From IMG/VR virus record IMGVR_UViG_3300029708_000226: a stretch of DNA of 64,000 nucleotides, one strand, 5' to 3'. Shown one piece after another: positions 1 through 64,000 of this stretch; positions within the stretch are counted from its first letter, which is position 1, and every line of letters starts with the position of its first letter. The position numbers and the translations under genes are program-made. Source of the DNA: a virus (taxonomy: Duplodnaviria > Heunggongvirae > Uroviricota > Caudoviricetes). The notes beneath the pieces were generated by a model, which was not told where the DNA came from, made no database searches, and saw only the letters and a program-made list of their open reading frames with translations.

Positions 1-82
1 ATTGATCAAGTACACACTTTTTGAACCCAAAACAAGAAAAACGCTTCTGGAGTGCTGACCAAAAGCGTTTTGTCTACAGTCT

Positions 83-107
83 GATAGGCTCACATTGTGA
101 GCCTAAT
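83..107. terminator. Perfect palindrome TAGGCTCACATTGTGAGCCTA followed by a T-run; a second copy lies at 440-464
   Basis: 9-bp arms AGGCTCACA/TGTGAGCCT are visible in the sequence; the two copies flank a small gene. Confidence 0.5.
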
Positions 108-145
108 TTTTATTGTTTGATATTTTCCTTTATTTCTACATTGCA

Positions 146-310
146 TTATGTCAATGGTTTGCCTAATCTGTTTCTCCAATAGTTGTCTTCACATTCTTGT
201 ACTCTTTGTTCCCATTGACGTTTTTGTTCTCTCTCAGACTTCTGCTGAAACTCCTGTTTCTTACATTTCCTTTGCTTCTCCAAAATGCAGTTCATTATAA
301 AAGTATTCAT
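146..310 (-). CDS. Small basic protein (~54 aa; starts MNTFIMNCILEKQRK), hypothetical
   Basis: ATG at 310 preceded by GGAAGGA RBS; the conserved promoter motif sits upstream at 345-365; not in the ORF track because it is <60 aa. Confidence 0.4.
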   Translation of the reverse strand: MNTFIMNCILEKQRKCKKQEFQQKSEREQKRQWEQRVQECEDNYWRNRLGKPLT

Positions 311-344
311 TCAAGTGCTCCTTCCTGGGCGGATATCTATTTTG

Positions 345-365
345 ATATTATTAATATGAAGGAAA
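345..365 (-). promoter_or_regulatory. Conserved cassette promoter-like motif (plus-strand reading ATTATTAATATGAAGGAAAAG)
   Basis: Member of the ~37-copy motif family found 25-60 nt upstream of minus-strand start codons. Confidence 0.5.
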
Positions 366-439
366 AGAACTATAAAAATGCGTAGACTATATGTAGTGGA
401 TATACTGTAGAAGAATATAAAATATTGATTTAGAATATA

Positions 440-464
440 GGCTCACAATGTGAGCCTAATATGC
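440..464. terminator. Second copy of the palindrome TAGGCTCACAATGTGAGCCTA
   Basis: Near-identical to the copy at 83-107. Confidence 0.45.
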
Positions 465-598
465 CGCAAAGCCGCATAAATAAAGGGTTTCGTTAAAAAC
501 AAGATGTCGTAGAGAGGGTCGAAAACGGTACAATATCTTGATTTATTTTACCTTCTATTTTGACATAAAAAGAGCCCCATTTCTGAGGCTCCTGAGTT

Positions 599-2843: not shown

Positions 2844-3785
2844 CTATTTTTCTGCCGTCGTTGTCCCATCGGTTACATTACCAATATCCAAAATCAAATT
2901 GCTGGAATCAGAATTCATAACGCTGGGTAACTTTCCGTCCCACTTGTCATAATACTGCTGTTTCAAAATCTTTTCCGTGATGGAGTCATTTAGCAGCTTA
3001 TTTGCGTCTGCTTCACCCTGTGCCTTAATAACCGCCGCATCGGCTTCCGCTTTTGCCTGGGTCGTCTTCACCTTCGCTTCGGCCTCGGCCGCCTCAATCT
3101 GCCGCTTATTTTCGATCTGCTGCTTTTCGTAAGCAAGCTGCGCGGTCTGTTTGTCGGCGATTGCCTGATTGTAAGACTCCTCGAAATCAGTATTGGCGAT
3201 AACTACTTTGTTGATAAATACCACTTCGTCACCGTATTTCTGATTCAACGCTTCCTGAATCTTCTCCTGCGCGAGAGGTTCAATAATTCCTCTGTTTGTC
3301 GCATCGGTGGAATTTAATTCCTTACTACTGCTCTTGATTGCAGAAGCAACCAGGCTATCAGAAATCAGATTCTTTTTATAATCTGATATGTTTGCATAGA
3401 TCCATGCGCTTTTTTCGGAATTGATCGTATAGGTAACAGTTACGCCCTCATAATACAAAATCGTTCTTTCGGATGTTTCGCTCCATACCTGCCCGGTGTA
3501 AGCAATATCCTGTTGCTTATTGTTTACCTGGCTGATTTTCTGAACAAAGGGAATCTTCCAGTTAAACCCATTCTGGACGGTTCGATTATCAATCTGTCCA
3601 AAAGTAATCCGGACACCGGTATATCCCGTGGGGATAATTGCAAAGGACTGGCTGAGAACACAAATTGCTAATCCCAAAAAAACTCCGGGAGCGGCGTGTC
3701 TCATCGTTTTTTCCTTTTCGTTTACAACCCAGATGATGCTTGCAATAGCAATTACGATACCAATAATTAATAATGCGATATTCAT
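2844..3785 (-). CDS. SPFH/band-7 (prohibitin/HflC-like) membrane protein
   Basis: N-terminal TM helix, SPFH-like core and an Ala/Glu/Lys-rich coiled-coil tail (AEAEAKVKTTQAKAEADAAVIKAQGEADA). Confidence 0.75.
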   Translation of the reverse strand: MNIALLIIGIVIAIASIIWVVNEKEKTMRHAAPGVFLGLAICVLSQSFAIIPTGYTGVRITFGQIDNRTVQNGFNWKIPFVQKISQVNNKQQDIAYTGQVWSETSERTILYYEGVTVTYTINSEKSAWIYANISDYKKNLISDSLVASAIKSSSKELNSTDATNRGIIEPLAQEKIQEALNQKYGDEVVFINKVVIANTDFEESYNQAIADKQTAQLAYEKQQIENKRQIEAAEAEAKVKTTQAKAEADAAVIKAQGEADANKLLNDSITEKILKQQYYDKWDGKLPSVMNSDSSNLILDIGNVTDGTTTAEK

Positions 3786-3900
3786 AAAATATCCTTTCTG
3801 TTTTTAATGGTTTTCTCCATTTTTCTTCAGTTATAAAATTATTATGAAAGAAAATCATGATATAAAAACAGAAAACTCCGGAAATATTCCGGAGTTAATG

Positions 3901-4272
3901 TTACCTTTCTGAAATTGCCGCCGCATACGCCAAATAACATGCAATATCGCCAAGATCTTTTCTGCCAAATTCTTTTTCCAAAGGCATTTTATTATACCTA
4001 AGAAAAATATTCAGACAATCCATAAACCGATCATGTGACGATGTACGATATTTGTCGTTTTCTATCTTCCACATACTATCATGTATTGCCCAGTCCATAC
4101 GGTATTTTGCATACTTGATTGCTGCATTAAGCAAATCCGTCGCTAACTCCCTATTATCCTCATCTTCGCCAGATAGAGCATTCGGAAGCATGGTGCTTAC
4201 GAGTATAGCGATATCTTCACATTCGGAATTGGTAAAAAAACTATTCATAGAAAAGTTCCTCCTTCCGGTCAT
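3901..4272 (-). CDS. Hypothetical protein (123 aa)
   Basis: ORF with its own upstream motif and terminator. Confidence 0.5.
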   Translation of the reverse strand: MTGRRNFSMNSFFTNSECEDIAILVSTMLPNALSGEDEDNRELATDLLNAAIKYAKYRMDWAIHDSMWKIENDKYRTSSHDRFMDCLNIFLRYNKMPLEKEFGRKDLGDIACYLAYAAAISER

Positions 4273-4588
4273 CTAGCTCATGAAATAGCTCTTTTACGTT
4301 TGTATACTCTTCTATTATCTGATCCATATCTGCTTCAGACAGATTAACTGCAGAATAACTTTCGATATGTTTATCGTTAAAGATCGGATCATAAACTGGT
4401 TTAAATATAAAATGAAATTCATTTTTGCATTTTGTTGGAAGTATGGAAACATGTTTTTCGGTAAATTCTTCTCCGGTATCAAAAACGAGCCGGACATCAT
4501 ATCCATAGCCCTGTAATATGCGAACAATGTGCTTTCCGCCGTCAGGATTAGATGTTTTTTCTTCCTTTATAACTTTAAGCTGATACAT
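4241..4588 (-). CDS. Hypothetical protein (115 aa)
   Basis: ORF; promoter motif at ~4618-4634. Confidence 0.5.
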   Translation of the reverse strand: MYQLKVIKEEKTSNPDGGKHIVRILQGYGYDVRLVFDTGEEFTEKHVSILPTKCKNEFHFIFKPVYDPIFNDKHIESYSAVNLSEADMDQIIEEYTNVKELFHELDDRKEELFYE

Positions 4589-4650
4589 TCGTCTCCTCCA
4601 TTTCTCTAGTATTGTATCATTAATATGTCAGAAATGGGAAGAGTAAATAT

Positions 4651-5520
4651 TCAGCGTTCAATATCCTTTGCTGAACAGCCATTGGAATGTTCATAATTGC
4701 CATTTAGCACATCCTGCAGAAGAGAAGATCTTTCCGGTACTTTTTCTTCTATCTGTACTGCCCCTCCGTGATCGCTCGATATTTCCATGACTACATTTTT
4801 GAAAATTTCCTTTCCTATATACCCGTTTTCGCTTTTATCAAAATAACACGATGCACCGCCAAGAGAAATATTACCGACCGTTTCAATGTCGTATTCTCCA
4901 TATTTTGTAGGATTTTCGAGGCTGATCTGACAACCATCGCGAAAAGTGACTATGCCGGTTTTGCGTTCGTTCATGAAAATCTGTAAATCTTCCGATATAT
5001 CTGCGGAAGCGTATTCATTGAATTTTTCTGTCATTTCGTTTTTATTCAGCTCTGGATAAGATTTTTCCTTTGCTTTTTCTACAACCTGGTCCAGGAGATG
5101 CTCTGATTTCTCGAGTGTTCCTTTTTCGAACAATTCGTTTGTCAGGTCTGCACAAAATTTTGCAACACGGTAGTGATTGTCCTGGCTGAATTTTAGTAAT
5201 CCATGTTCCTGTGTCATCTGGGGTTCAAAATCAAATATTTTTTGCTGTCCATTTCGTCTTGCAATATCATTGATATTTTTACAGGCAGCGCAGGCCTTGT
5301 CATGAACTTTATTTCTTTCGTCGTTTGCCTTTTCGATTCTTGCTATATATTCCGACTGATCTATTCTTTCGGAAATAAGGAATGCGCGATTTCTTTCAAT
5401 AGCAAGTTCCTGATTAGCGACTGTATTGACATATTTGGTTAATGTCTGTGCGTATTCAACGATTTCATCTGCACTCCCGGGAACTTTTTCCATAAGTGCG
5501 CTAAGTTTTTCTATATACAT
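4651..5520 (-). CDS. Hypothetical protein (289 aa)
   Basis: ORF; promoter motif at 5541-5558. Confidence 0.55.
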   Translation of the reverse strand: MYIEKLSALMEKVPGSADEIVEYAQTLTKYVNTVANQELAIERNRAFLISERIDQSEYIARIEKANDERNKVHDKACAACKNINDIARRNGQQKIFDFEPQMTQEHGLLKFSQDNHYRVAKFCADLTNELFEKGTLEKSEHLLDQVVEKAKEKSYPELNKNEMTEKFNEYASADISEDLQIFMNERKTGIVTFRDGCQISLENPTKYGEYDIETVGNISLGGASCYFDKSENGYIGKEIFKNVVMEISSDHGGAVQIEEKVPERSSLLQDVLNGNYEHSNGCSAKDIER

Positions 5521-5573
5521 AAAAACACCATCCTTTCTGCCATTAATATGACAGAAAGAACGGGTACAAAATC

Positions 5574-6026
5574 CTAAAGCAGTATCTTCTCTAACAGTAT
5601 CTTCCGCTCATACTCCTCTCGTACTGCGTTCAGGTCAGTTGGTTCCTTTATGGTAAAACGAGCTCTTAGGAATCTCTCCATATCTTTTTCGATATTCTCT
5701 ATAGTTCCTTTTGCGGTTTTTCCAGGTCCTGCTGTAAGATAAAAAGTCCATTTTCCGAGAGCGTTATTGCCACGTCTCCCGTTTTCATCCGGAGCGAGGT
5801 CGCAGCGAATTTCGATTCCGGACAAAGATATCTCCTTACATTCCGGTATCCAACGGTAATCTGTTATTACTCTCATTGCACCGCAAAATAACTGAAACAA
5901 CACGTTTCGAACTTCATTCCAGTGTTCTGCACAGTCTATTTCTATCGTCTGCAGAAACCATTCGAACTCAAAATCCATATCAAGACGGGATCCGGGTGCT
6001 TCTGCCGCTTTTGTTCCTTCAAACAT
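5574..6026 (-). CDS. Hypothetical protein (150 aa)
   Basis: ORF; motif at ~6054-6070 and hairpin TCCCGGAGCGGGGACTCCGGGA upstream. Confidence 0.5.
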   Translation of the reverse strand: MFEGTKAAEAPGSRLDMDFEFEWFLQTIEIDCAEHWNEVRNVLFQLFCGAMRVITDYRWIPECKEISLSGIEIRCDLAPDENGRRGNNALGKWTFYLTAGPGKTAKGTIENIEKDMERFLRARFTIKEPTDLNAVREEYERKILLEKILL

Positions 6027-6357
6027 AATTTTCTCCTATTCTGTTATATATAACTATTATGAAAGATATTTTTTTAAATAACAAAATTTCCCGGAGCGGG
6101 GACTCCGGGAAACGCATCAAAGATAAAAGGGGAATCAGATCTATTTTCATCTGATAATACTATTATAACAGCTTTGAAATTTATTGCAAATTTCTGCACA
6201 GAAATTATTACAAAGAAAAATAAACAAAAATAACAATACAAAACAGTATGTATTTAACAAAACAACTGTTCCATATTGTATTAATTTTAAAAATATGATA
6301 TTTTCGTTATGGCAAAAGTAGATAGATGTTTTTGTTTACGAAAGAGAGGCGAAAATC

Positions 6358-6744: not shown

Positions 6745-7179
6745 TTATTGATTAACAAAAAAATAAACGTCATAAACATCTGCATTTTGATGTGATGAGA
6801 TTTTAAAATATGCCTCGCATATTTTTAAGTAGTCAACTCTCCTTTTGGGAGGAATTGCTATTTCATATCTCGGATAAATGTAACGATACCAAAACAGATC
6901 CAGACACCGGTTTTGTTCGTAATACTCCATCCTTGGTTCAATAATTTGCAGAATTCCGCCTGATTTTAAATATCTGTGGAGACACTGAATCACCTTCGGT
7001 ATATCAGCATGATGTAGTACGTTTTTAAGGCGAAATTCATCAACGGATCCTTCTTGCAATCCAATAATTTCGTTTGTTTCTGTATTGTATACATAATTTA
7101 AATAGGGACCTTGAGTAATATCACATGTTTTATATCCAGGATATGGATTATATCCGCTGCCAAAATCAATTTTAAGCAT
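6745..7179 (-). CDS. Small class-I SAM-dependent methyltransferase-like protein (144 aa)
   Basis: Motif-I-like IDFGSGYNPYPGYKTCDI and LKSGGILQII; tightly linked downstream of the radical-SAM genes. Confidence 0.5.
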   Translation of the reverse strand: MLKIDFGSGYNPYPGYKTCDITQGPYLNYVYNTETNEIIGLQEGSVDEFRLKNVLHHADIPKVIQCLHRYLKSGGILQIIEPRMEYYEQNRCLDLFWYRYIYPRYEIAIPPKRRVDYLKICEAYFKISSHQNADVYDVYFFVNQ

Positions 7180-7188
7180 ACTGCACTC

Positions 7189-7989
7189 CTACGCCAAGTC
7201 GTGGTTTCCTATATCATGGCAGTAATCTTCCCACACAGAATAGACTTTATGGGAATACCGTTCATTAGAATGACAATTCGGTGCAATGATAATATCTGTC
7301 TTTTCGTATCCGGCTTCTTCCGTATCTGCGGATGCGTTTTTATCTCCATGATACCCAAACAGCCCAAATTCTTTTCCCTTCCACTCAAACGTGAAGAAAT
7401 TATGTCCATCACTACGTAATAATTTAGCGCCCATGCCATAAAGCAGATCTTCATAGCTGTCTTTATAGTTTAAATTGTATCTGCCCATAAGATCTTCACA
7501 TACAACCACGCCGATATCATCTGCTAAAATCATATCAACAAGTTCATATAACTTTTCCCCAGTAGACTCCCAAGATTTTGGAAGATTGATGCGTAAATTA
7601 GGCACGTACTTTTTTGCAATCAGTATCTGTTCTCTTCTGGCCTTATATTGTTCTTTAGAAGATATAGAGATTGCCATTTCTTCCAGTCCATTTTCCACTA
7701 AAGCTTTTGTTAATTCTTCAGTTAATTTTGTACCATTTGTTACCAGACAAATTGTATTTACGTATTTATTCACTACTTCGAAATAATCTACGATATTCGG
7801 TAAAAGCAAACTCTCTCCGCCCATAATGGTGGCTCTTTCCAGCATACCTACTTTTTTCATAGTCTCTTCCATTTTTTCAATATCTAATATCTTTTCTCGC
7901 TTCTCCGGCTGAAAGCAAAAATAGCAGTTTTGATTACAATGAAAATTTGTGATAATTCGATACCGGAACACTCTATGATTATGTAACAT
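7189..7989 (-). CDS. Radical SAM enzyme (CxxxCxxC: NFHCNQNCYFCF), 266 aa
   Basis: Start refined to MLHNHRV (GGAGG RBS 8 nt upstream); the hairpin at 8003-8030 separates it from the upstream peptide gene. Confidence 0.75.
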   Translation of the reverse strand: MLHNHRVFRYRIITNFHCNQNCYFCFQPEKREKILDIEKMEETMKKVGMLERATIMGGESLLLPNIVDYFEVVNKYVNTICLVTNGTKLTEELTKALVENGLEEMAISISSKEQYKARREQILIAKKYVPNLRINLPKSWESTGEKLYELVDMILADDIGVVVCEDLMGRYNLNYKDSYEDLLYGMGAKLLRSDGHNFFTFEWKGKEFGLFGYHGDKNASADTEEAGYEKTDIIIAPNCHSNERYSHKVYSVWEDYCHDIGNHDLA

Positions 7990-8037
7990 ATTTTCCTCCA
8001 TAGAAAATGCCCCTGAATGGGGCATTTCTGTTAACGA

Positions 8038-8163
8038 TTACTTATTCTCAGTAATAATAGCTAACTGACCGCATGCAGCTTTTGCAGTAATTTCTGCTTC
8101 AGTCGCAATGGCAACTGCGTAATCATAACCTGCTGCTCTTAACTGATTTGCGATTTTTTCCAT
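8038..8163 (-). CDS. 41-aa peptide MEKIANQLRAAGYDYAVAIATEAEITAKAACGQLAIITENK; candidate substrate or partner of the flanking radical-SAM enzymes
   Basis: GGAGG RBS; sits between two radical-SAM genes with 22-nt and 48-nt gaps; not in the ORF track (<60 aa). Confidence 0.4.
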   Translation of the reverse strand: MEKIANQLRAAGYDYAVAIATEAEITAKAACGQLAIITENK

Positions 8164-8184
8164 GAATTTTTCCTCCTTTATGTA

Positions 8185-8979
8185 TTACATCAAATTTCTT
8201 TTCTCGATAATACCAGATCCCATATGATTTTTCTCAGAAATCTCGTTCTCGTTAATAGGACTTAATTTTATAAAGAAATATCTAGGATCAAAATATTTGG
8301 TCAAGATATTGATGTCAAAATCTTCATAGTCTACCAATGTCATATTGACAGTTGTTTTCAAATTACTATTTGTCCGAATCTGGCCCAGTTCTTCGATAGA
8401 CATCAGATTACTGATAGGAATTAAATTGTGTCGTCTTTCCTCATTAAGACTATGTAAGCTTACTTGTAACGTAATATTGTCTTTAATCCAGCTAAAATCA
8501 CTTCCCTGTAATCCAACTGTAGAGATATAATGATGCGTTCCTGGATATTTTTCGTCAATTATCTGAATGGCTTTTTTTACTTCTTCTATATTTAGGAACG
8601 GCTCTCCCATTCTGGTGTAATTGATTTTATGTTCCCAAGCATCTTCAAATCGATATTCCGGATTCTGTTTGATAATAAATTCCACCTGGGCTACAATCTC
8701 TTCGGCTGTTAAGCAACGCCATCTTTTAAGTTTTCCGGTTGCGCAAAATTTACAATGCACAGGACAACCGCTCATACAACTAACACCAATCATCCATCGA
8801 TTGGTCCGGTCTCCAACTTCATATGTCTTCAGTGTGTTTTCATTGTTATTGATTGCGTCCTTTGTATAATTTGGTAAAAAAGTATCGGTGACTTCCAATG
8901 GATATTCATCCTCTGTTTCTAATGCATATACCTTTCCATTTGTAAAGGATCTGCTGCGTAATTCTTTTAACATAAGCAC
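8185..8979 (-). CDS. RlmN/Cfr-family radical SAM methyltransferase homolog, C-terminally truncated (264 aa)
   Basis: GCPVHCKFCATG, LTAEEIVAQV, MGEPFLN, ISTVG and LQVSLHSLNEERRHNLIPI mirror conserved RlmN blocks; it lacks the C-terminal region that carries the methyl-carrier Cys in RlmN. Confidence 0.7.
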   Translation of the reverse strand: MLMLKELRSRSFTNGKVYALETEDEYPLEVTDTFLPNYTKDAINNNENTLKTYEVGDRTNRWMIGVSCMSGCPVHCKFCATGKLKRWRCLTAEEIVAQVEFIIKQNPEYRFEDAWEHKINYTRMGEPFLNIEEVKKAIQIIDEKYPGTHHYISTVGLQGSDFSWIKDNITLQVSLHSLNEERRHNLIPISNLMSIEELGQIRTNSNLKTTVNMTLVDYEDFDINILTKYFDPRYFFIKLSPINENEISEKNHMGSGIIEKRNLM

Positions 8980-8996: not shown

Positions 8997-9017
8997 CCAT
9001 TAATATGACAGAAAAAG
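8997..9017 (-). promoter_or_regulatory. Conserved cassette promoter-like motif (CCATTAATATGACAGAAAAAG) heading the radical-SAM operon
   Basis: Motif family; the four genes downstream have no internal motif, so they appear co-transcribed. Confidence 0.55.
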
Positions 9018-9774: not shown

Positions 9775-9798
9775 TTACTCTTCTCCATTTACAAATAA

Positions 9799-11148: not shown

Positions 11149-11155
11149 CTCATTA

Positions 11156-53771: not shown

Positions 53772-53930
53772 AATTATTGTAATTCCTCCTCTTTTCTTTG
53801 ATTTCTCTTAATATGAAAGAAAACCGCGGATAAAATCCACGGTTTCTCATAAACTAATTAATAACTTTATGGACAACAGCTACCTGGCATTCCGTTCCCG
53901 ATACATATACCGGTGGAATCCAGTACAGGA

Positions 53931-54194: not shown

Positions 54195-54207
54195 TTGTTC
54201 TCCTTAT

Positions 54208-54627: not shown

Positions 54628-54637
54628 ATTTTTTCTC

Positions 54638-54967: not shown

Positions 54968-55064
54968 TTCTCTATTTTATTATATTAATATGAAAGAAAT
55001 AAGATCCCGAATTTGGAATCCTATACCAGATTTTCCTATGGCTTTTCCGCAACTTTTCTTCTGA

Positions 55065-55273: not shown

Positions 55274-55708
55274 CTAATCGATTTTTCTCATATAATCCTG
55301 ATTCGGACTCTGATATATTGTGACCTGATTTTCGTTTGCGTAGATCATTCCAAGTTCGGTAATTGCACGGCGCTTGATTTCTTCGAGATTCATACTGCTC
55401 TCCAAACGTTCCATTTCCTCGTCATTGCTTCTTTTTATGGTATTTAATTCTTTTTCCAACTGGGATATTTCGCTGATTTTTGCAGTGAGTTCCGCCTGTG
55501 ACTGGATGTAATTTATAAGTACCATGGCGCATAAAAATAAAGCAGCTACAAGAAACAAAACATACCCGATGTTCATATGTTTTGCTTTTTCCCGGTTATG
55601 TCTCGTTTCATTTGATAAAATCCGTGGTTTTGAATTCATTTCGCGAATCAATTCATCAGTGGTTGCTGTGTAAACATATCTCTGCTGTCTTCGTCTGTGT
55701 TCAGTCAT
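55274..55708 (-). CDS. FtsL/DivIC-like bitopic membrane protein (septum-formation-initiator family-like)
   Basis: Basic N-terminus, single TM (IGYVLFLVAALFLCAMVLINYI), coiled coil, then ...RRAITELGMIYANENQ. Confidence 0.5.
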   Translation of the reverse strand: MTEHRRRQQRYVYTATTDELIREMNSKPRILSNETRHNREKAKHMNIGYVLFLVAALFLCAMVLINYIQSQAELTAKISEISQLEKELNTIKRSNDEEMERLESSMNLEEIKRRAITELGMIYANENQVTIYQSPNQDYMRKID

Positions 55709-55804
55709 TTTTCCTCGATTTTGTATAAATAATACGTGTTAATTATTATGATTATTATGATAGAAAAGCAAAAAGAAACTCGCAAATACGCGAGTTTCTC
55801 AACT

Positions 55805-56131: not shown

Positions 56132-57187
56132 TTATATTAGCGTTAGATTCGATCCGGTTGTTTTCTCAAACAGATTGTAAATATCTCTCTTTTCGAATTT
56201 GAATCCGCCGGCTCCCTTGTGTCCGCCGCCTCCGAACTGTTTGACAATTTCTGCCACATTGATATCTTCCTTGTCACTGCGGATAGAGACCCCGTTTCCG
56301 TAATTAACAATGAACAGATCAAGCTGCGGATACGTATCGCGCATGTAATCCAGAACATCGAATATATATTTGGAATCATCAATGTAGGCAATGTCGTATG
56401 TTCTTGTATAGTTATCTTCCATCGGAATATCCAGTGTCCCGAATTTGATCTGATTCTTAATGTTTTCAACATGCTCTTTTCTTTTTGCTTTTTCTGCTTT
56501 GAGCATAATTCTATCGGTATCGGAGCCATAATAAATTGGAGACAATCCGATTTTTGATAATCTTCTGCGAACATACAGATTATTCCCATAAGCGGCAAAC
56601 AGGAGATTTTCATCCTTAAATTTATAGTTTCCTTCAAAACAGGTTTTCCAATCCCGTGTATCGTAAGCGGAAATCCATAGACATATATTTTCTGCTGTAA
56701 TGCAACTTGCATCAGGAAGAAAATTAATACCACAATAATACATGTAATCTAATATGAGAGAGGTTCCTGAAGAATGCCCGTTTGAATAATAATTGACCAG
56801 GAAGGAATCTTCTAACATATCCCCGAAACTTACGCCCCAGGAATATCTGTTGATATACTGGCTTGTCAGATGATGGTCCAGTAAAACGAACCGGCTGTTA
56901 ATATCAGGCAGGCTATCGATATATTCAGCATCCGCCTCATTGCAGGAAATATCGCAGGCAATAACTTTACCGAAGCTTTCAGCGATAGCCGCATCGGTTA
57001 AAGCTTCCTTGACGCGTCCACTCATCACCCCGTTACTAAGATGTACAACCTTAATATTTTTATCCGGAAACATGCATCTCAAAACGATTTCTGCTCCGGC
57101 TCCATCTGCGTCATCATGTGTCAGTAACAAAATGCGGTCGTCTTTATTGACTTTTGCAAGTTTTCCAAATAATTCGTTTCTAAACAT
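56132..57187 (-). CDS. DHH-DHHA1 family phosphoesterase (NrnA/GdpP-catalytic-domain-like)
   Basis: LLTHDDADGAGAEIV (motif I/II), LLDHH (DHH) and C-terminal GGGGHKGAGGF (DHHA1 GGGH). Confidence 0.8.
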   Translation of the reverse strand: MFRNELFGKLAKVNKDDRILLLTHDDADGAGAEIVLRCMFPDKNIKVVHLSNGVMSGRVKEALTDAAIAESFGKVIACDISCNEADAEYIDSLPDINSRFVLLDHHLTSQYINRYSWGVSFGDMLEDSFLVNYYSNGHSSGTSLILDYMYYCGINFLPDASCITAENICLWISAYDTRDWKTCFEGNYKFKDENLLFAAYGNNLYVRRRLSKIGLSPIYYGSDTDRIMLKAEKAKRKEHVENIKNQIKFGTLDIPMEDNYTRTYDIAYIDDSKYIFDVLDYMRDTYPQLDLFIVNYGNGVSIRSDKEDINVAEIVKQFGGGGHKGAGGFKFEKRDIYNLFEKTTGSNLTLI

Positions 57188-57290
57188 AATTTTCTCCTTC
57201 TTTCTTTGTTTTTATTAATATGAAAGATTTATGTCCATAAAAGAAAACTTCCAGCCGAAGCCGGAAGTTTTATATTTTATTGTTTCCGGC

Positions 57291-57524
57291 TTATAAACCG
57301 AAAATTTTATCAACTTTTACCAGTCCTGCGTTTGCCACAGCCCATGCCATTACAACATAGATCATTGCGACATTTTTGCCGCAATACGTGTTAAGAAATG
57401 CCATAATTAACACGCTGATAACAAAACTTGCAACCATAATGAAAATTAAAGAAATATTTTTCTGCATATTTGATTCCTCCTGTTTTAAGGAGCTCCCTGT
57501 TGCTCCAATTATCTTTGATAACAT
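57291..57524 (-). CDS. Small membrane protein (77 aa)
   Basis: Two TM segments. Confidence 0.45.
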   Translation of the reverse strand: MLSKIIGATGSSLKQEESNMQKNISLIFIMVASFVISVLIMAFLNTYCGKNVAMIYVVMAWAVANAGLVKVDKIFGL

Positions 57525-57558
57525 TAATATGCAGGAAAATATATTTCTAATTCCAAAG

Positions 57559-58275
57559 TTATCCGAAATACTTCAGCACCTTACAACCCTCTTTTGAAAA
57601 ACTGATATAAGCGTATCTGCAGAATCCAATAGAAGGAACATTTGCGACGTTTTCCATCATATTCTCGTGCAAATGGCCATGAAAATGGTACGCAGGCTGT
57701 CTGTTCAGTAGATACCATGTGATCCCCTCAAGTCCTGCGTGCGATCCTTCGTCTCCCGCTTTCTTAGCTTTATCGTGACTGAGCAGAATATCACATTCAG
57801 GAAGTGTTTTTGCGATTTTTACGCTCTCCTCATCCGTCATCATCGGTGCATCTGTATTTTTGTATTTGATACTTCCATGGATGCCTGTAAAACTCACACC
57901 ATTGACTACCACCATTTTCCCGTTTATGTCCGGAAGACCGGTCTCTTCGAGCTGTCCGTAATAATCGTGATTTCCAAGAAGTGCGTATCTTGGAATATCT
58001 GCGTAATACTGTTTGAGAAGCAGCTGTTCTCTTTCACTCATGTCTCCGAGTGCAAATACAATATCCACATCTCTGATGTCGGAAATGAAATTATCCAGTG
58101 CCTGTTTCGTCATATGCCCATGGGTATCTGTTATGAATAGCGCACGAAATTCCCCGGTACATCCCGGAATCTCCCGTTTACGAACCTCAAAACGCTTTTC
58201 TTCCTCGGAAAACATGACTTTTTTCGCTGTATCATTATGCATGATTTTTCTTCTTAACAATCTGTCCAAAAACAT
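57559..58275 (-). CDS. Metallophosphoesterase (calcineurin-like)
   Basis: LFITDTHGH, ALGDMSE, LLGNHDYYG and HFHGHLHE motifs. Confidence 0.75.
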   Translation of the reverse strand: MFLDRLLRRKIMHNDTAKKVMFSEEEKRFEVRKREIPGCTGEFRALFITDTHGHMTKQALDNFISDIRDVDIVFALGDMSEREQLLLKQYYADIPRYALLGNHDYYGQLEETGLPDINGKMVVVNGVSFTGIHGSIKYKNTDAPMMTDEESVKIAKTLPECDILLSHDKAKKAGDEGSHAGLEGITWYLLNRQPAYHFHGHLHENMMENVANVPSIGFCRYAYISFSKEGCKVLKYFG

Positions 58276-58285
58276 AATTTCTCTC

Positions 58286-59971
58286 CTATATTATAAATAC
58301 GCCGACTACTTCATTCAACCGGTCTACGATAGCTTTTACGTCCTTGATCTGCTCATCGATTGCTGCGATCTGTCCTGTCATCTCATTAATCGTAGCTGAG
58401 GTCTCCTCCGTGGATGCAGCATTCTCTTCGGATATCGCAGATAAGGATTCTGCACTTTCGATGATAGCATCTTTGCTGGAATTGATCTCTTTCACTTTTG
58501 CCGCAATTTCAGTAATCTTATCCGATACGCTGCCGATACTTTCCATAACACGTTCGAAGTCGCTATGCATATCTTTTAAGACCTGTTCTTCTTTTGCGAC
58601 TGCTTCACGGATCATTCCGGCAGAAGTTGTGCTTCTTTCGGAAATCGCCAGGATATTTGCGATGATATTTTTGATCTCTGTTGCGGATCCATTGGATTGT
58701 TCTGCGAGATTTTTAATTTCCCCTGCGACAACAGCAAATCCTTTTCCTGCTTCTCCCGCTCTTGCTGCCTCAATAGATGCATTCAGGGAAAGCAGATTTG
58801 TCTGCTCGGCAATGGATGCGATGATCGTGGCCGCTTCGCTGATCTTTTGTACAGCACTATTTGTTTCCATAACACTATCTGCTACTTCGTCGGCTGCTTT
58901 ATTCGTAAGCCCATTTGCAGATAACAGTTCATCCAGCGTTTTCATGGTTGCATTTGAGATTTCACGGATCTGTCCGGAAGCATCCATGGCATTTTCGGAC
59001 AGAACATTCGCGCTCACGATAGCTTCGCCGACTGCCGCCATCTGCTCATTGATATTCTGGGCATGATTTGCCAGGTCCATGGCTCCGCTCGAGATCTCTT
59101 CGACTGCGGTATTGACACTGACGGCAGCATCATTGCAGACAGCAACCTCATGATTGACGAGTCCGGTGTCCTGAAGCAGATTTCCCGATGATTCATTTAC
59201 CCGTTCTATAGTCCGGACCATATTTTGCTTAAGATCTGTTGCTGCACCGATCAGCTGATTGGTTTCCTTCAGAATAGAATGAATCCGGACATCTGCGGTA
59301 AAATTTCCTTTTGAAAATTCTGTGATCACGTATACTATTTTTGCGAGCGGTTTGCAGATCGCTTTTGCTGAGATCATTGCTATAACAATCCAGAACAACA
59401 GAGATGCAGCATAAACGATAATCGACTGTTTTGTGATATTATTTATGCCGCTTAATACATCGGATTCATTTGCCGTTATGACCGCTATGTATTTCTCATT
59501 GATTCCTACATAATAAGCGGCATATTTCAGGGTGCCGTTAAAATTATATTCGATAATATCCGGTTCCGGATGTTTGCCCGCGTTGATCTGACTGATCAAT
59601 GTTTTTACCGCTTCGTTTTCTACGGATTTTCCTACTTTTTCTTTTGTCGGGTGGTACAGCATTTCAGCCGTATAACCGTCAACAATATAAAGATAGGATG
59701 AATCGACATCAGTAACGGTATAATTATTTGCTTTTGCAGATAAAAAATTATAAGAAAGAGCGTCGTCATCTCCTTCGAATAAAGCAGAATCCAGTGTGCT
59801 GCCGCATTGCTCCACAATAGAAAGCATATAATTTTTAGTCAGGCTTTTTACCTCTTTTGAAGTTGCCTTCGTGGATGCTGTCGTCACACCTAAAAGTACT
59901 GCGACAAGCGGCAGGGCTACTGCGAGCAAAAGAACCCGATACATACTGAAAATGTTCTTTTTGTGGTCCAT
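58286..59971 (-). CDS. Methyl-accepting chemotaxis protein (two TM, periplasmic sensor, HAMP, MCP signalling domain)
   Basis: Highly conserved MCP signalling-domain block [38 protein letters not shown]. Confidence 0.85.
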
Positions 59972-60091
59972 AACTTACCTCCATTTAGCTGTTATTTTTT
60001 GTATTTGCTCCAGAGTATCCAAAAATTTTTTGAGTTCCGAATCTATTGTTTTTGGCGGATCTTTAGGTATATTTTTAATTCCAAGCATACT

Positions 60092-60544
60092 TTACCCTCT
60101 TCCACATAAAAGAGCCATATCTCCTTTTATTTCCTGTGTCTGTGCAATAGTCTTTGATACTTTTTGGCTATGCTCTTCCACCATGTATAATGACATGCAG
60201 AAAAATAACGGAAGAATATCTGTTATCTGCGATCCGGATAATTTCACTGTTATTTCTCCGGTCGTCCTGTTTTTCGTAGACATAGCCTTCAGCATATTAT
60301 AAGCAGCCATCAAACTGTCCGCGGAAATGGAGAAATTGCCGGCCTTTGCGATCATTCCGCTCGACTTTTTTATCGCGTTCAGATATTCTTTGTATTCTGC
60401 CTGATTGGAAAAGGTGATGTTCACGATTGGTGAATTAGCGGCGGACAATTTTTTTATATTCAATTTTTTACTCCTTTTATAATATTTTTCATATTTATTA
60501 TGAAAGAATTTGGTAAAAAATAAAGAAAAGCGCTGCTTTTGCAA
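60092..60544 (-). CDS. Hypothetical protein (150 aa)
   Basis: ORF. Confidence 0.5.
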   Translation of the reverse strand: MQKQRFSLFFTKFFHNKYEKYYKRSKKLNIKKLSAANSPIVNITFSNQAEYKEYLNAIKKSSGMIAKAGNFSISADSLMAAYNMLKAMSTKNRTTGEITVKLSGSQITDILPLFFCMSLYMVEEHSQKVSKTIAQTQEIKGDMALLCGRG

Positions 60545-60560: not shown

Positions 60561-60953
60561 TTAGCCTACTGCATACTGTTCTACCACAATCGCCGGCCAT
60601 ACAATCTGTGGTTCTACACGACGCATTTCTTCCCCATCGAATAAATATCTTCTCAGATTTCCTTTATTATCAGAAAATTCCAGATAACTTCCCCGCTGAA
60701 TAAAACTACCAATCGCGGAAAGGACTTTATCCAGTGCATAAAATGTATCTTCGGGATAACTATGGTATTTTAATTCTGCACTTGAATCCTTTTTGTCTAT
60801 TACATAGAATCCAATCTCTTCCATGATCGCATCGAAATCGCAGCCTCCAAATTCCACGGCAAGTTCTTTATCTTCGAGAATAGCGTCAACGGCAGAATCT
60901 TTTTTACCTGGTTTTATTCTTAGGGTTCCTTCCCTGTAAATTAAGTCGCACAT
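60561..60953 (-). CDS. Hypothetical protein (130 aa)
   Basis: ORF. Confidence 0.5.
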   Translation of the reverse strand: MCDLIYREGTLRIKPGKKDSAVDAILEDKELAVEFGGCDFDAIMEEIGFYVIDKKDSSAELKYHSYPEDTFYALDKVLSAIGSFIQRGSYLEFSDNKGNLRRYLFDGEEMRRVEPQIVWPAIVVEQYAVG

Positions 60954-60974
60954 ATTTTGCTTTCTCCTTTGGTT

Positions 60975-62075
60975 TTAGGCAATATAATGAATATCCATAT
61001 CATAATTCAATGCGATTTTTACATAAGTAATATGCATATTTTTATATGCATCCATATGGCTCTCATCGATGTAATCATCATTAAAATCTACTTTAACTGC
61101 ATCTCCGGAAACAACAAAGCTGTTTGTTTTCTTTTCATAGATCGCATCTTTCCCTAAAAAAACAATATTGATACTATTATTCGCATTATCATCTACCCAG
61201 AACCTATTTCTATTTGTACCAAACAGATTTAGGCTAACGGATTCATTACAGAAGGTAAAGCCTTCCTGTGTATAAACTGTTACCGAATAAGTAGTATCTT
61301 TTTCGCCGGTATTTACAATATTCAGATCCATAATTGCATCTTCAAAAGTTTCCCCATCATTCAATTCCAAAGCAATCGCAGAAAGACAATCATAATTAAG
61401 CTTAATCTTTTTGGAGAATGCTACTACCTTATGAATCTCAGAATGATATTCCGGTGCTAACTTATCCAATAAGTACTCTCTTACCTCTTCTGCAGTAGGA
61501 TAGTTGAATCTAAAATGATAATGAAATCTACCGGGTCTATTAATTAGATATTCATTTAAAGACCGATATTTATTACAGGTAATTACAAACAACTTCTTTC
61601 CGTGGCTGGTACCATCAAACAAAGAAAGCATCTGCGCCTGCGGATCTTCACTATCTGCGGAAGCGAAGGTTTTATCAAATTCATCAAATAATACCAGCAC
61701 TTCATTTTGAATGCTGTTAATAAAGTCGCTAATTCCGGGAATATATTCATTCACCAAAATCACAGGCATTCCGTTTTCGATTGCCTCATTAGAAAGTAAT
61801 CTGGCAAATAGAGATTTTCCGATTCCTTTATCTCCGCTTAAAATAACACCGAGGTTCTTGTTTGTGTTTTTGAATCTGTTTAAGACCTTTCTTACTTTGG
61901 ATTCATGTACCCCGTAAATCTTTTCCTCTTTAATTTCCAAGTTCGCCTGCTTCTCTAAAAAGAAACCGGTAAATTTAGAAAAGCCTACCTTATAGGTCTG
62001 CGCAGGAAGATTTTCAAGTACGATTAAATCCTCACCATAAATTTTATACGTTGTTCCTGTTTCAATAATTTTCAT
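60975..62075 (-). CDS. AAA+ ATPase (~366 aa)
   Basis: Walker A LSGDKGIGKSLFARLL and Walker B VLVLFDEFD; start refined to MKIIETG (RBS AAGGAGA). Confidence 0.75.
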   Translation of the reverse strand: MKIIETGTTYKIYGEDLIVLENLPAQTYKVGFSKFTGFFLEKQANLEIKEEKIYGVHESKVRKVLNRFKNTNKNLGVILSGDKGIGKSLFARLLSNEAIENGMPVILVNEYIPGISDFINSIQNEVLVLFDEFDKTFASADSEDPQAQMLSLFDGTSHGKKLFVITCNKYRSLNEYLINRPGRFHYHFRFNYPTAEEVREYLLDKLAPEYHSEIHKVVAFSKKIKLNYDCLSAIALELNDGETFEDAIMDLNIVNTGEKDTTYSVTVYTQEGFTFCNESVSLNLFGTNRNRFWVDDNANNSINIVFLGKDAIYEKKTNSFVVSGDAVKVDFNDDYIDESHMDAYKNMHITYVKIALNYDMDIHYIA

Positions 62076-62167
62076 TGATAATTTTCTCCTTTTTTCTTTT
62101 GATGGTATTAATATGAAAGAAAAACAGCAAAGAAAAACAGTCCTGAATGAGACTGTTTTTATAAGTT

Positions 62168-62652
62168 TTATACCGATTTCCTTAAATACAAATCTTCGTA
62201 ACATTCACAATTTTTACCAACACAACATGTGCAACCACCATCGTAATTACGAAAACAATTATAAGGAACTTTCCAATGTATTCTGGTGAGAATAACTTCC
62301 TCAAAACCAAACATATACATAAGGGTATATAAATTTACTTTATCTTTTTTTTGGTAAACGCCAACAGCTACAGTAAATATCGTCATGCGCATCTTTTAAC
62401 ATTTCAACAAACAATGCTTGCATATATCCTTTGTGTCTGTATTGTGGATGAGTGCAGGTCCAATCTATTTCCAAATGGCCATATTCGCTATTCGAAGTAA
62501 GTCCTGTCATTGCAACTAAAACATTGTCTGCAAATTACAAATAATATCTGTCTGTTAAATTTTCATACGGTTCTAAATCATTTTTATTCCCAAAACAAAT
62601 TAGCATAAGCTGTTGGATTATATTTTTATCATTTAATGTACTTTTACGAATC
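62168..62652 (-). pseudogene. Disrupted GNAT acetyltransferase-like gene with an in-frame TAA (~62533-62535) and a frameshift at an A8 run (62343-62350)
   Basis: Strong RBS AGGAGGACGAAAAT-ATG at 62652; the reading frame MIRKST...DRYYL*FADNVLVAMTGLTSNSEYGHLEIDWTCTHPQYRHKGYMQALFVEMLKDA continues across the stop; the C-terminal part (LYTLMYMFGFEEV...) is in another frame reached through the homopolymer. Confidence 0.5.
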
Positions 62653-62684
62653 ATATTTTCGTCCTCCTGTTATTTGTCATTTCT

Positions 62685-63158
62685 TCACATTTTTAATTTT
62701 TCTTCCAGTTCAAATAAATCCGCCGCTACATTCACACCGCATACCTTCAAATTATCGACGATTTCAAGGCAATGGCCAAAAGTATGCGTACAAATAGCGA
62801 AACGGTCCATAAAAATGATTGCCGGATTTGGATATGGGATCCAGTCATTCGCATTATATTTCGAAGACGGAGATCTATATATATAAATGCCGGAAATAAA
62901 ATGCGGAAGTTCCGCGATGATGGCATCTTTTTCTCCATTTTTCAGAAAAAGGACTGATTCTGGGAGTGTGTACTTTGAAAGAAATTTACGGCGGGTTATC
63001 TGATTGTTATCCCAGTCCTTTTTCTGTTTTTCTATTCTTCGATTTTCTTTTCTTTTCAGAATAACTTTATCAATAACATCTGTTATTCTATTTGCGACAA
63101 CGGATATCAGAGCACTGACGAAAAAGATAGTAAATGTCGCTATTAAAGGATTTTGCAT
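62685..63158 (-). CDS. Membrane-anchored hypothetical protein (157 aa)
   Basis: N-terminal TM. Confidence 0.5.
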   Translation of the reverse strand: MQNPLIATFTIFFVSALISVVANRITDVIDKVILKRKENRRIEKQKKDWDNNQITRRKFLSKYTLPESVLFLKNGEKDAIIAELPHFISGIYIYRSPSSKYNANDWIPYPNPAIIFMDRFAICTHTFGHCLEIVDNLKVCGVNVAADLFELEEKLKM

Positions 63159-63229
63159 TAAAACCTCCTAGTATAATTTGATAAACATCCCGTCTGAGAT
63201 TTTAACTGCAGACGGGATGTTGAAGAATA

Positions 63230-64000
63230 TCAGTTTTTGATAATATAAGTTTTTAAATTATCTAATAAACTTCCGCTGATATTGAATTTCTGATGTTCTG
63301 ATAATGTCCTTACGCCAACGGTTTCATTAACAACAATACTGTCCCCGTTCTTGAAAGCAGTAATCTCAATATCATAAGCATCCTTCTCTTCAATATCGTA
63401 AGGAATCGGGAATCGAATGATTTCTGTTCTTACGCCGAAACGTCTCAGGTCCTCTTCATTCGTATCTCCGCCGGATATTGGCTTTTCGTAATAATAATTT
63501 TTCACGGTATCAAAGCCGCTCATTGCGAAATCATCCGGGAATTTTACCTGTACCTGATCTGCATATCCACTGGTCCTAACGATCAGAACTCCAGTTTCGC
63601 CTTTTTTAAAGGTAATACAACCGTTGTCACCTATCGTATCGATACTTGTCTGAGAAGTGATCTGGGTTCTTAATCCAAATTCTCCTAATCCTTTAGATTC
63701 TTCTGTTTCGTTGCCTACATTATCCGAAGCGTAAATAACAAAATTTACATCACCCTGAAAAAGAAGGTCATCATTAATAATGTTGATCGTGATGGTTCCG
63801 TTTTTTCCATCATCAGAAATTGTTCCTATAAATGTCTGCGTTTTCTTATTATCTTCATTTTCGATGACAATATAAAATTCTTTCAGACCGCTTTCATCAT
63901 CTTTTACATCAATGGTGATCTCATAATCATCCGGATAATCTCCCACATCGATATTGTCGATATTTTTCAGGAATTCATATCCGTCTCCGGATATTTCTGG
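63230..64000 (-). CDS. Hypothetical protein, 5'-partial at the window edge (>=256 aa)
   Basis: The frame stays open to position 64000. Confidence 0.5.
   Translation of the reverse strand, partial: PEISGDGYEFLKNIDNIDVGDYPDDYEITIDVKDDESGLKEFYIVIENEDNKKTQTFIGTISDDGKNGTITINIINDDLLFQGDVNFVIYASDNVGNETEESKGLGEFGLRTQITSQTSIDTIGDNGCITFKKGETGVLIVRTSGYADQVQVKFPDDFAMSGFDTVKNYYYEKPISGGDTNEEDLRRFGVRTEIIRFPIPYDIEEKDAYDIEITAFKNGDSIVVNETVGVRTLSEHQKFNISGSLLDNLKTYIIKN

Follow-up and report, generated by a model that had tools for sequence, protein, structure and literature searches.

A predicted element-specific promoter class with terminator-linked modules in a giant mobile element of human-gut Clostridia, and a primary-sigma paralogue as its candidate reader

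Bacillus phage SPO1, with gp28 and gp33/34, and plasmid pBS32, with SigN, are mobile elements whose sigma factors redirect the core RNA polymerase of the host to promoters with a consensus of their own. In the Kayvirus late promoters, TGTTATATTA, a long -10 box stands without a -35 element and recognition is ascribed to a phage sigma (PMC7698491); the late promoters of P100-like Listeria phages, TDTGCTATATTA, which also lack a -35 element, are likewise ascribed to a phage sigma (PMC12282133). T4-like phages carry promoter early stem-loops (PeSLs), which are composite modules of a terminator and a promoter (PMC2839356, PMC4122927). Here we describe a 17-nt motif, TTWTCTKTCATAWTAAT, that recurs along the 64,000-nt stretch IMGVR_UViG_3300029708_000226, recorded as a virus of the Caudoviricetes (hereafter the window, meaning the whole stretch analysed), and along related contigs of the same mobile element. 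We consider it probable, on the sequence evidence set out below, that the motif marks an element-specific promoter class which is read by the host core polymerase together with an element-encoded paralogue of the primary sigma factor.

The pattern ATTAWTATGAMAGAWAA with two mismatches or fewer has 35 matches in the window against 0.62 expected from dinucleotide-preserving shuffles (the largest shuffle gave 4), and 34 of the 35 are oriented like the minus-strand genes. The class-1 position weight matrix (PWM), built from these pattern copies and applied with a cut-off score of >=11, finds 39 copies of the motif on the gene (minus) strand, where mononucleotide shuffles give 0-1, and only one on the plus strand, at 48686-48702 ahead of tnpB. 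The gene-strand sites are all intergenic, in a window of which ~85% is coding and only ~15% intergenic DNA. For 34 copies the motif ends 18-55 nt (median ~31) ahead of a start codon with a GGAGG-type ribosome-binding site. An earlier note on this DNA had listed 40 coordinates for the motif; all of them match a site within ~11 nt and the PWM scan confirms that the motif is real, the sites listed at 24740, 17380 and 46672 being weaker variants. Two of its other statements proved too broad: the motif is not upstream of almost every minus-strand gene, since it lies within 80 nt for only 34 of 92, and the architecture is not one of single-gene cassettes, since the units between motifs range from 1 to 8 genes (mean 2.3), with a single gene in 14 of them.

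The flanks were aligned for the window copies and then for 172 non-redundant sites (a lower bound, at least 172) from related human-gut contigs of up to 262 kb. The 17-mer reads T-T-W-T-C-T-K-T-C-A-T-A-W-T-A-A-T and spans -20 to -4 in promoter coordinates: the -10 hexamer CATAWT has a TTWTCTK extension on its upstream side and is followed by AAT as the discriminator. A(-11) and T(-7), motif positions 10 and 14, are found in 35/35 window copies, and in 171/172 and 170/172 of the non-redundant family sites, respectively. C(-12) is present in 34/35 seed copies and 171/172 family sites, and with position 9 masked in the detection matrix it is still C in 269 of 287 sites (94%). The TCTK at -17 to -14 takes the place of TRTG in Firmicute promoters. 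Conservation is bounded, and past -4 it is limited to the purine of +1. Positions 20 and 21 hold a pyrimidine followed by a purine, and the predicted +1, 7 nt past the hexamer, is A in 29/35 window copies and a purine (A/G) in 159/172 family sites. The purine thus falls at +1 with standard spacing if CATAWT is taken as the -10 hexamer. No conserved TTGACA-like -35 hexamer was found 16-18 bp upstream in the aligned window copies or in the 172 family sites; the usual site of a TTGACA -35 is taken by a short T-tract, which lies at -32 to -30, 10-12 nt ahead of the motif, and is kept also in copies without a terminator. This geometry is that of a -10/extended -10 promoter with the -35 element missing, in agreement with the earlier note, which had further argued that a conservation of 17 nt is more than host sigma-A needs; length alone is not evidence against host sigma-A.

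Beyond the window, the pattern CTTTGATN{3,6}ATTAWTATGAMAGAWAA, which combines the motif with a common leader, recovered 48 metagenome stretches, ~40 of them from this element family. They show 5-10 co-oriented motifs per ~10 kb, many at places that have no sequence in common with the window. The motif runs on into a region of dUTPase, thymidylate synthase, RuvB-like, RecG-like and HU genes at 12-13 per 21 kb, and in this nucleotide-metabolism and replication region it is always on the gene strand. Among 60 diverged orthologous copies of 28 window sites, mismatches amount to 2.7% in the 17-mer against 7-9% in its flanks, the invariant positions show no changes, and the T-tract is protected too. 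Judged from these orthologues, the motif is under purifying selection. Its anatomy, placement and selection together give good support to the view that it is a promoter, and it is probably the core of a promoter class specific to this mobile element.

The element beyond the window was sampled via tnpB homologues, which covers part of each contig (up to ~260 kb). A candidate reader of the motif comes from a related strain, L219, which encodes a 304-aa sigma-70-family protein with regions 1.2, 2, 3 and 4 (gene at L219 20800-21467). L219 is 88-96% identical to the corresponding parts of L217, and L217 in turn shares a contig with L130, which is related to the first 15 kb of the window. In comparisons that rest on the readable first 222 of the 304 residues, the protein best matches SigA/RpoD (E 3e-51 in NCBIfam and 2e-42 against solved SigA structures) and is ~50% identical through regions 1.2-3; models of sporulation sigmas score far lower. 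Promoters of the sporulation-sigma (CATA-type) kind were rejected for this reason, the sigma being SigA-like and the SigG/F models scoring far lower. Region 2.4 reads FSTYATWWIRQSAIRGI (WWIRQSAIRGI) in the element sigma versus FSTYATWWIRQAITRAI (WWIRQAITRAI) in SigA: in E. coli numbering Q437 and R441 are kept, T440 is changed to Ile, and positions 438, 439 and 442 also differ, while the region 3.0 equivalents of H455 and E458 are retained. With sigma-70-type primary sigmas a C at -12 acts as a down mutation, and a T:A-to-C:G change there is suppressed by the substitutions T440I (Siegele 1989) and Q437H (Waldburger 1990) (PMC2613000). It is by this very base that the motif departs from an ordinary -10 element. 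Because T440I shifts the -12 preference from T to C, the Ile at the T440 position of the element sigma matches the C(-12) of the motif. This specific correspondence of a residue to a base argues for recognition by the element-encoded sigma, which, as a part of the reading proposed above, we hold to be somewhat better than an even proposition. The earlier note had suggested an element-encoded factor or RNA polymerase; a factor is favoured by the sigma of the related strain and its residue that fits C(-12), and a polymerase is not, as neither an RNA polymerase subunit nor a single-subunit (T7-like) polymerase was found in any sampled locus.

It is proposed that the host core RNA polymerase, carrying the element sigma with Ile at the Thr440 position, would read the class-1 promoters and thereby drive a private regulon of accessory, tRNA-adjacent, nucleotide-metabolism and replication genes along an arm of >100 kb, with all genes co-directed. 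Host sigma-A probably starts the programme from a minority of promoters that have an upstream class-2 box, TTTCTGTGCAGAAA, and a -35-like TTGnnn. One promoter of the TTTCTGTGCAGAAA type precedes the sigma gene itself, which sits behind the box TTTTTGTGCAGAAA and the motif TTTTCTATCATATTAAT; the box and its -35-like half suggest that the host polymerase starts expression of the sigma, which would then activate its own gene. Each unit of 1-8 genes would be insulated because the promoter usually comes directly after an intrinsic terminator, and the repeated terminator-promoter modules would offer short homologies for the gain, loss and exchange of cassettes between strains.

Terminator-like GC-rich hairpins with T-runs precede 26 of the 39 motifs, 25 of them ending at a distance of 0-30 nt (mostly 12-30 nt) and one at 77 nt, and a 27th (53821-53845) overlaps its motif. 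The pairing that had been claimed for each motif is therefore not universal, and it stands for ~70% of the copies. In three cases the two parts are fused or overlapping, with the motif's own TTTTCTTT overlapping or providing the T-run of the terminator. When the window was compared with all related loci, 81 distinct homology breakpoints were found, 21 of which fall in motif modules that make up 5.8% of the window (4.5-fold enrichment; binomial p = 5e-9); 29 of the 81 are within 60 nt of a motif (8% expected), and of the intergenic breakpoints 58% lie in modules versus 38% expected. The methylase cassette (~12154-13357) stands between 86-nt direct repeats of terminator plus motif, and one such module takes its place in the related locus L132. 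Gene order along the arm differs strongly between strains, and subfamilies of modules have 50-100 nt in common beyond the motif. A PeSL-like role of the modules in cassette exchange is thus supported statistically, and the comparison with PeSLs and the picture of recombination-prone cassettes drawn in the earlier note are borne out by the enriched breakpoints and by the methylase cassette between its module repeats.

Several points weigh against the element sigma as the reader. Its gene was seen in the related strain L219 and not in the window's own contig, and its region 4 lies outside the 222 readable residues. A full-length sigma with region 4 normally uses a -35 element, and none is conserved here but the T-tract. 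G stands at -14 in only ~1/3 of the copies. The motif also stands 16-53 nt ahead of tnpB in two distinct TnpB insertion sequences and ahead of a Mob_Pre relaxase gene, and a bacterial chromosome fragment has, in the interval from valS to an LtaS-like gene, a 103-nt terminator-promoter-leader module (L194 1371-1471) with 91% identity to window 27566-27668, the module of the motif at 27600. Going by these copies, the host RNA polymerase alone could use the motif; they may also reflect adaptation to residence in the element, or be products of recombination. The L194 copy further shows module exchange with a bacterial genome, possibly that of the host.

The rival explanation that gains most from such copies holds that the class-1 sites are host sigma-A promoters of an ordinary, '-10 only / extended -10' kind, and that their uniformity over 17 nt would come from PeSL-like duplication and gene conversion of one module instead of recognition by an element factor. 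The motif ahead of insertion-sequence and relaxase genes and in the chromosome fragment fits this explanation, as do the likeness of module subfamilies over 50-100 nt outside the motif, the clustering of breakpoints in modules and the existence of hybrid copies with a -35-like TTGnnn and a box. We nevertheless judge it unlikely. C(-12) holds in 171/172 sites even where flanks are unrelated, and at 94% when the position is not used in detection, whereas C at -12 is a down mutation for primary sigmas (PMC2613000); the -35 element is missing and the TG of an extended -10 is present in only ~1/3 of copies; the motif is kept by selection and not merely by recent copying; and the element has its own SigA paralogue with a matching T440I-type residue.

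A different element-encoded device, be it a small late sigma of the Herelleviridae type, an anti-sigma or sigma-appropriating protein that frees the host RNA polymerase from its need of a -35, or a phage RNA polymerase of a non-canonical kind, seems to us less likely still. TKTCATAWTA matches 9 of 10 positions of the Kayvirus late box TGTTATATTA (TGYTATAWTA) and resembles the late box of the Listeria phages, the AAA ATPase of the window (60975-62075) is 48% identical to Enterococcus Herelleviridae homologues, the products of the window include an alpha-CTD-like protein and one with several sigma-region-4-like helix-turn-helix (HTH) motifs, and much of each contig (to ~260 kb) lies outside the sampled part. 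However, of 855 sampled proteins of the element none proved homologous to the late sigma or anti-sigma of EFDG1, a phage of the Herelleviridae (and of the relatives of the EFDG1 sigma, none among the 120 matches listed is on a contig of this element's sizes), the sampled loci lack any RNA polymerase subunit, the geometry of A(-11), T(-7) and +1 fits a sigma-70-family holoenzyme, and the Herelleviridae late promoters have T(-12) and serve morphogenesis genes, whereas those described here have C(-12) and serve accessory and replication genes. That the motif is no promoter at all but a protein operator, an RNA leader or processing signal, or purely a recombination site is very improbable, for although breakpoints are enriched at modules, a semi-conserved leader ATCAAAGAAAA follows many copies and two small RNA (sRNA)-like genes are complementary to it, the strict orientation, the position between terminator and ribosome-binding site, the spacing of invariant bases and the +1 purine are all promoter-like, the motif has no dyad symmetry, and the units after terminators would otherwise be promoterless, canonical promoters being at chance level. 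Bacteroidota-type or archaeal promoters were rejected on account of the GGAGG ribosome-binding sites and the presence of canonical Firmicute promoters.

The class-1 sites of the window, with the genes that follow and the terminator-like hairpins that precede them on the gene strand, are given here from left to right; all are on the minus strand except the copy ahead of tnpB. TTTTCCTTCATATTAAT (350-366) lies 39 nt ahead of a 54-aa open reading frame (ORF) at 146-310. In five related strains (L130-L134) homology to the window stops at 84, and the first 83 bases differ. TTTTCTTTCATAATAAT (1786-1802) precedes gene 599-1738, with a hairpin (1824-1846) 21 nt before it, and TTTTCTGACATAATAAT (2775-2791) precedes gene 1856-2731, with a hairpin (2814-2835) 22 nt before it. 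The genes of 599-2731 are two neighbouring repetitive genes with repeat units of 78 nt and 72 nt. The motif at 3838-3854, 19 nt behind a hairpin (3874-3896), is ahead of an SPFH gene (2844-3785), ATTTCTGACATATTAAT (4619-4635) is ahead of genes 4241-4588 and 3901-4248, and the motif at 5542-5558 is ahead of gene 4651-5520. Gene 5574-6026 has ATATCTTTCATAATAGT (6053-6069), and the hairpin 16 nt before it (6086-6113) is the 3' end of the first sRNA-like transcript. A radical-SAM unit (6745-8973) follows the motif at 8999-9015.

Two motifs lie in the 86-nt module repeats, one at 12098-12114 ahead of a six-gene unit (9235-12065) and the other at 13385-13401 ahead of the C5 methylase gene (12356-13354); their hairpins, at 12131-12150 and 13418-13437, are both 16 nt before the motif, and a homology breakpoint against L133 is exactly at 13401, the edge of the second. 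The motif at 14710-14726, with a hairpin 12 nt before it (14739-14766), precedes an RNase-A-like gene (13773-14684), and that at 16474-16490, with a hairpin 14 nt before it (16505-16529), precedes a four-gene unit (14770-16441). A weak variant, AAATTTATCATAATAAT (17380-17396; hairpin 17415-17428, 18 nt before), is ahead of a gene for an AcrIC5-like protein (17154-17345). TAATCTTTCATAATAAT (19378-19394; hairpin 19425-19448, 30 nt before) has an upstream box variant and leads an HD/PASTA/SLT unit. The class-1/box hybrid AAATCTGTCATAATAAT (23582-23598) is ahead of an eight-gene unit (19455-23549) with TPM, LemA and flotillin genes, and the weak variant AAATCCGTCATAATATA (24737-24753), listed earlier as 24740, stands behind the box at 24771-24784 and ahead of gene 23700-24698. 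Gene 24754-25155 follows the motif at 25187-25203 (hairpin 25233-25256, 29 nt before), and a seven-gene unit (25260-27572) follows that at 27600-27616, whose hairpin (27694-27715) is the one at 77 nt. The motif at 28827-28843, 30 nt behind a hairpin (28874-28891), is ahead of the gene for a pentapeptide-repeat protein (27719-28795) with ~23 copies of a 15-nt unit.

At 30887-30903 the motif is fused to the stem of the abutting terminator hairpin (30903-30931), whose T-run is the motif's own TTTTCTTT; the motif at 32919-32935, ahead of gene 32053-32886, is likewise fused to the terminator hairpin that abuts it (32935-32963). Between these two, the motif at 31527-31543 (hairpin 31557-31571, 13 nt before) precedes gene 31068-31493. 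The variant AAATCTATCATAATAAT (37808-37824; hairpin 37839-37863, 14 nt before) is upstream of the tRNA array and 23 nt before a canonical sigma-A promoter. The best score, 29.3, belongs to the motif at 38424-38440 ahead of gene 37923-38393. AATTCTGACATATTAAT (41110-41126; hairpin 41139-41158, 12 nt before) is ahead of gene 39651-41081, and the motif at 43933-43949 (hairpin 43964-43981, 14 nt before) is ahead of a short ORF and genes 43234-43752 and 41162-43222. A class-1/box hybrid at 44706-44722 (hairpin 44752-44774, 29 nt before) precedes gene 43987-44682, the motif at 45084-45100 precedes gene 44782-45057, and the weak hybrid AAATCATTCATAATAGT (46672-46688; hairpin 46718-46738, 29 nt before) precedes the unit with the alpha-CTD-like gene.

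A second RNase-A-like gene (47391-48242) has the motif at 48263-48279, 19 nt behind a hairpin (48299-48323); its product and that of 13773-14684 are paralogous, both with a CdiA-CT RNase-A-like toxin domain, and the small gene behind each is a candidate immunity partner. The motif at 48479-48495 is ahead of a 39-aa ORF (48339-48458), and the motif at 51469-51485, ahead of a short ORF and gene 50716-51324, has 23 nt before it a hairpin (51509-51533) that is the 3' end of the second sRNA-like transcript. At 53807-53823 the motif, ahead of gene 53334-53771, overlaps the terminator stem 53821-53845. The motif at 54984-55000 is ahead of the unit 53931-54952, and homology breakpoints are at 54999 and 55014. 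The motif at 55751-55767 (hairpin 55773-55800, 5 nt before) precedes gene 55274-55708, that at 57214-57230 (hairpin 57244-57271, 13 nt before) precedes a DHH gene (56132-57187), TTTTCCTGCATATTAAT (57523-57539) precedes gene 57291-57467, AATTCTTTCATAATAAA (60494-60510) precedes the unit 57559-60463, which encodes a protein with an MCP-signalling domain, and the motif at 62107-62123 (hairpin 62137-62156, 13 nt before) precedes the AAA ATPase gene.

The only plus-strand copy, TAATCTGTCATAATACT (48686-48702), lies 16 nt ahead of tnpB; the plus-orientation copy of the earlier note is thus present, although situated within an insertion sequence. This TnpB-only insertion sequence (48606-50410, plus strand; tnpB 48719-50185, encoding a 488-aa TnpB) has its own promoter of box plus motif and is not in the related locus L122. 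Other strains have variants of it, 85-100% identical, at several further positions of the arm. A second, unrelated IS605-type element with a 377-aa TnpB (L132 6619-8171) interrupts the SPFH gene in L131, L132 and L134.

The class-2 box TTTCTGTGCAGAAA, with inverted arms TTTCTG/CAGAAA, occurs at ~10 sites; being near-palindromic, it gives 17 matches on both strands against 0.8 expected. It abuts a -35-like TTGnnn that stands 17 nt from a TATAAT or CATAAT hexamer, and several copies are hybrid promoters that have the class-1 motif for their -10 half. The box could be an operator, an activator site or an UP-like element. In related strains it is also found ahead of sigma, dUTPase and RecG-like genes. 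On the minus strand of the window, boxes or box variants lie upstream of class-1 motifs at 19411-19424 (variant; motif 19378), 23613-23626 (motif 23582), 24771-24784 (variant motif 24737), 44738-44751 (variant; motif 44706) and 46704-46717 (variant; motif 46672), and on the plus strand one lies within the insertion sequence at 48657-48670, upstream of the tnpB motif copy. The remaining minus-strand boxes adjoin other hexamers: a variant at 13759-13772, with TTGTCT-17-TAAAAT, is ahead of gene 13438-13704, the box at 47377-47390 abuts the canonical TTGACT-17-TATAAT at 47347-47375 ahead of gene 47021-47317, and those at 6191-6204 (TTGCAA-17-TATAAT) and 51614-51627 (TTGCGT-17-TATAAT) are the predicted drivers of two sRNA-like transcripts. 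Canonical TTGACA-17-TATAAT matches are at chance frequency in the window; perfect intergenic ones are those at 47347-47375, at the front of the tRNA array (TTGACA-17-TATAGT at 37756-37784, minus strand) and ahead of the plus-strand gene 45165-45443 (TTGACA-17-TATAGT at 45117-45145, plus strand).

The two sRNA-like genes (window 6076-6204 and 51501-51627) sit behind promoters of box plus TTGnnn-17-TATAAT. Transcript 1 is ~80 nt (6076-6155, minus strand) and comprises a hairpin, the conserved UUAUCUUUGAUGCG and a terminator; transcript 2 (51501-51578, minus strand) is homologous to it, with a first hairpin that is fully compensated, the stem being wholly different in sequence with pairing retained. 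Across strains the promoter spacers vary and the transcribed part hardly changes. The mRNA leader common to many genes, AUCAAAGAUAA, and the ribosome-binding site that goes with it are complementary to UUAUCUUUGAUGCG and the adjoining CCCC run. Predicted pairing reaches -15 kcal/mol or better for ~12 leaders, with a mean of -11.5 versus -10.5 +/- 0.4 kcal/mol for shuffled seeds, which is weakly above the controls; by this complementarity to a shared leader the two small RNAs may add a further layer of control.

Nearly all genes of the window are on one strand. It has one array of 35 tRNA genes (32985-37317, minus strand) and no rRNA; it is this array, and not an rRNA operon, that makes the stretch at 33-37 kb GC-rich. 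The products serve accessory functions and include two SPFH/flotillin proteins, LemA, a TPM-domain protein, two radical-SAM proteins and a C5 methylase, and further the MCP-signalling-domain protein, an SLT lytic transglycosylase, a DHH phosphoesterase, two RNase-A-like proteins, the AcrIC5-like protein and TnpB. Two other proteins are candidate transcription accessory factors, to judge from their domains. One, of 181 aa (45673-46218, minus strand), has an HTH-like N-terminus and an RNA polymerase alpha-CTD-like C-terminal domain (Pfam E = 8.6e-6); a search for its homologues gave near-identical copies only, and its AlphaFold model (pLDDT 52.6) is too poor for a fold search. The other, of 322 aa (38599-39567, plus strand), has several sigma-70 region-4-like HTH motifs and lies behind the extended -10 TGATATGAT. 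A type I-C module (Cas5-Cas8c-Cas7) is found in the same arm of some strains, and an AcrVA2-like gene in another strain (anti-defence and Cas coordinates: L177 7716-11254, L223 5731-9309 and L216 15909-16961).

Two window proteins match PHROG families strongly, and the nearest detectable phage homologues are those of the Herelleviridae; the element is not T4- or T5-like. Genes identical to those of the window are found on many human-gut metagenome contigs of up to 226-262 kb. The element is also on a 167,693-bp contig of the isolate Clostridium sp. AF34-10BH (L206; GCA_003478095.1 QUEC01000004.1), and its position mid-way in an 849,719-bp contig (L209; ERZ28760556 contig_379) suggests integration or a very large replicon. 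Megablast searches revealed no close relatives in INPHARED (12 kb; one trivial match) or in PLSDB (25 kb). Within IMG/VR, scans with the bare 17-mer gave single chance matches, box plus motif gave 0 and motif plus leader gave 1, and a search with a 686-aa protein gave no match; the element family appears to be absent from that database. A box-pattern scan of genome contigs gave mostly coding-sequence coincidences in Lachnospiraceae and other bacteria and no relatives, and matches of the RecG-like helicase in 'phage' records were uninformative. No virion or structural genes were seen in the sampled loci, which cover the element in part. At one edge of the cassette arm there are a relaxase gene, an integrase gene and an iteron-like array (L215 18050-18800 and 19778-21467): ~12 copies of a GGGACAATATATTGTCCC-like inverted repeat, iteron- or centromere-like, lie at the arm end, and these repeats are followed by the Mob_Pre relaxase gene behind a perfect class-1 motif and by the integrase gene. 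A short contig that has two cassettes in common with the element carries RepA_N, ParA and ParB genes. We regard it as a giant mobile element of human-gut Clostridia, most likely a jumbo (pro)phage.

If the proposed recognition is true, one residue change in a duplicated primary sigma and one base change in the -10 hexamer would have given a private, insulated channel of expression, and the sigma and its promoter would be a ready-made orthogonal pair for engineering gut Firmicutes. The fuller picture is more tentative, and we give it slightly less than an even chance: an orthogonal system in which a natural T440I-type sigma paralogue is paired with at least 170 C(-12), -35-less promoters on an element of up to ~260 kb, the modules act as units of cassette exchange, insertion sequences and a mobilisation gene have adopted the promoter, and the two leader-complementary small RNAs may add control. 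The PeSL idea that regulatory modules are recombination hot-spots which shuffle accessory genes is widened from T4-like phages infecting Gram-negative bacteria to a very different, widespread gut element, whose family carries anti-CRISPR genes, CRISPR-Cas modules, restriction-modification genes and tRNAs as cargo. The motif is also a practical marker, as a single pattern scan gave ~40 contigs of an uncatalogued family from human-gut metagenomes, and the isolate Clostridium sp. AF34-10BH provides an experimental handle on the element.

Compared with the known systems, the sigmas of SPO1 and pBS32 are highly diverged or ECF-like and use bipartite promoters, whereas the element sigma is near SigA and its promoters have no recognisable -35 hexamer. 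The class-1 promoters are like the Herelleviridae late promoters in their long -10 box, upstream T-rich/TG extension and missing -35 element. They differ in having C(-12), and G(-14) in ~1/3 of copies, in place of T(-12), in numbering ~40 copies per 64 kb in contrast to ~12 copies per genome, and in preceding accessory, anti-defence, tRNA-adjacent, nucleotide-metabolism and replication genes instead of morphogenesis genes; the candidate sigma is a SigA paralogue and not a small Herelleviridae sigma. The equivalent arm of EFDG1 has 17 canonical gene-strand promoters in 50 kb and no class-1 site on that strand, and the sole PWM hit there (score 11.6) is opposite to the genes, in a plus-strand gene block.

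Like the PeSLs of T4-like phages, the modules of this element consist of a stem-loop terminator and then a promoter, are repeated many times and flank variable genes of mostly unknown function, and the differences between related genomes begin and end at them (PMC4122927). Unlike PeSLs, whose promoters are sigma-70 early promoters, they contain a promoter with C(-12) and without a -35 element, they belong to an element without T4-like genes in the sampled loci, and they extend over an arm of >100 kb that includes replication and nucleotide-metabolism genes and not hyperplastic islands alone. With Ile at T440 and presumed promoters with C(-12), the element sigma recalls the laboratory suppressor pairing of E. 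coli sigma-70 T440I (PMC2613000); but where T440I and Q437H are point mutants of the housekeeping sigma, it is a paralogue that occurs naturally on a mobile element, and its specificity is predicted. The proposed regulon of an element-encoded sigma and the composite terminator-promoter module are each of a known kind, and it is their combination here that is a new variation.

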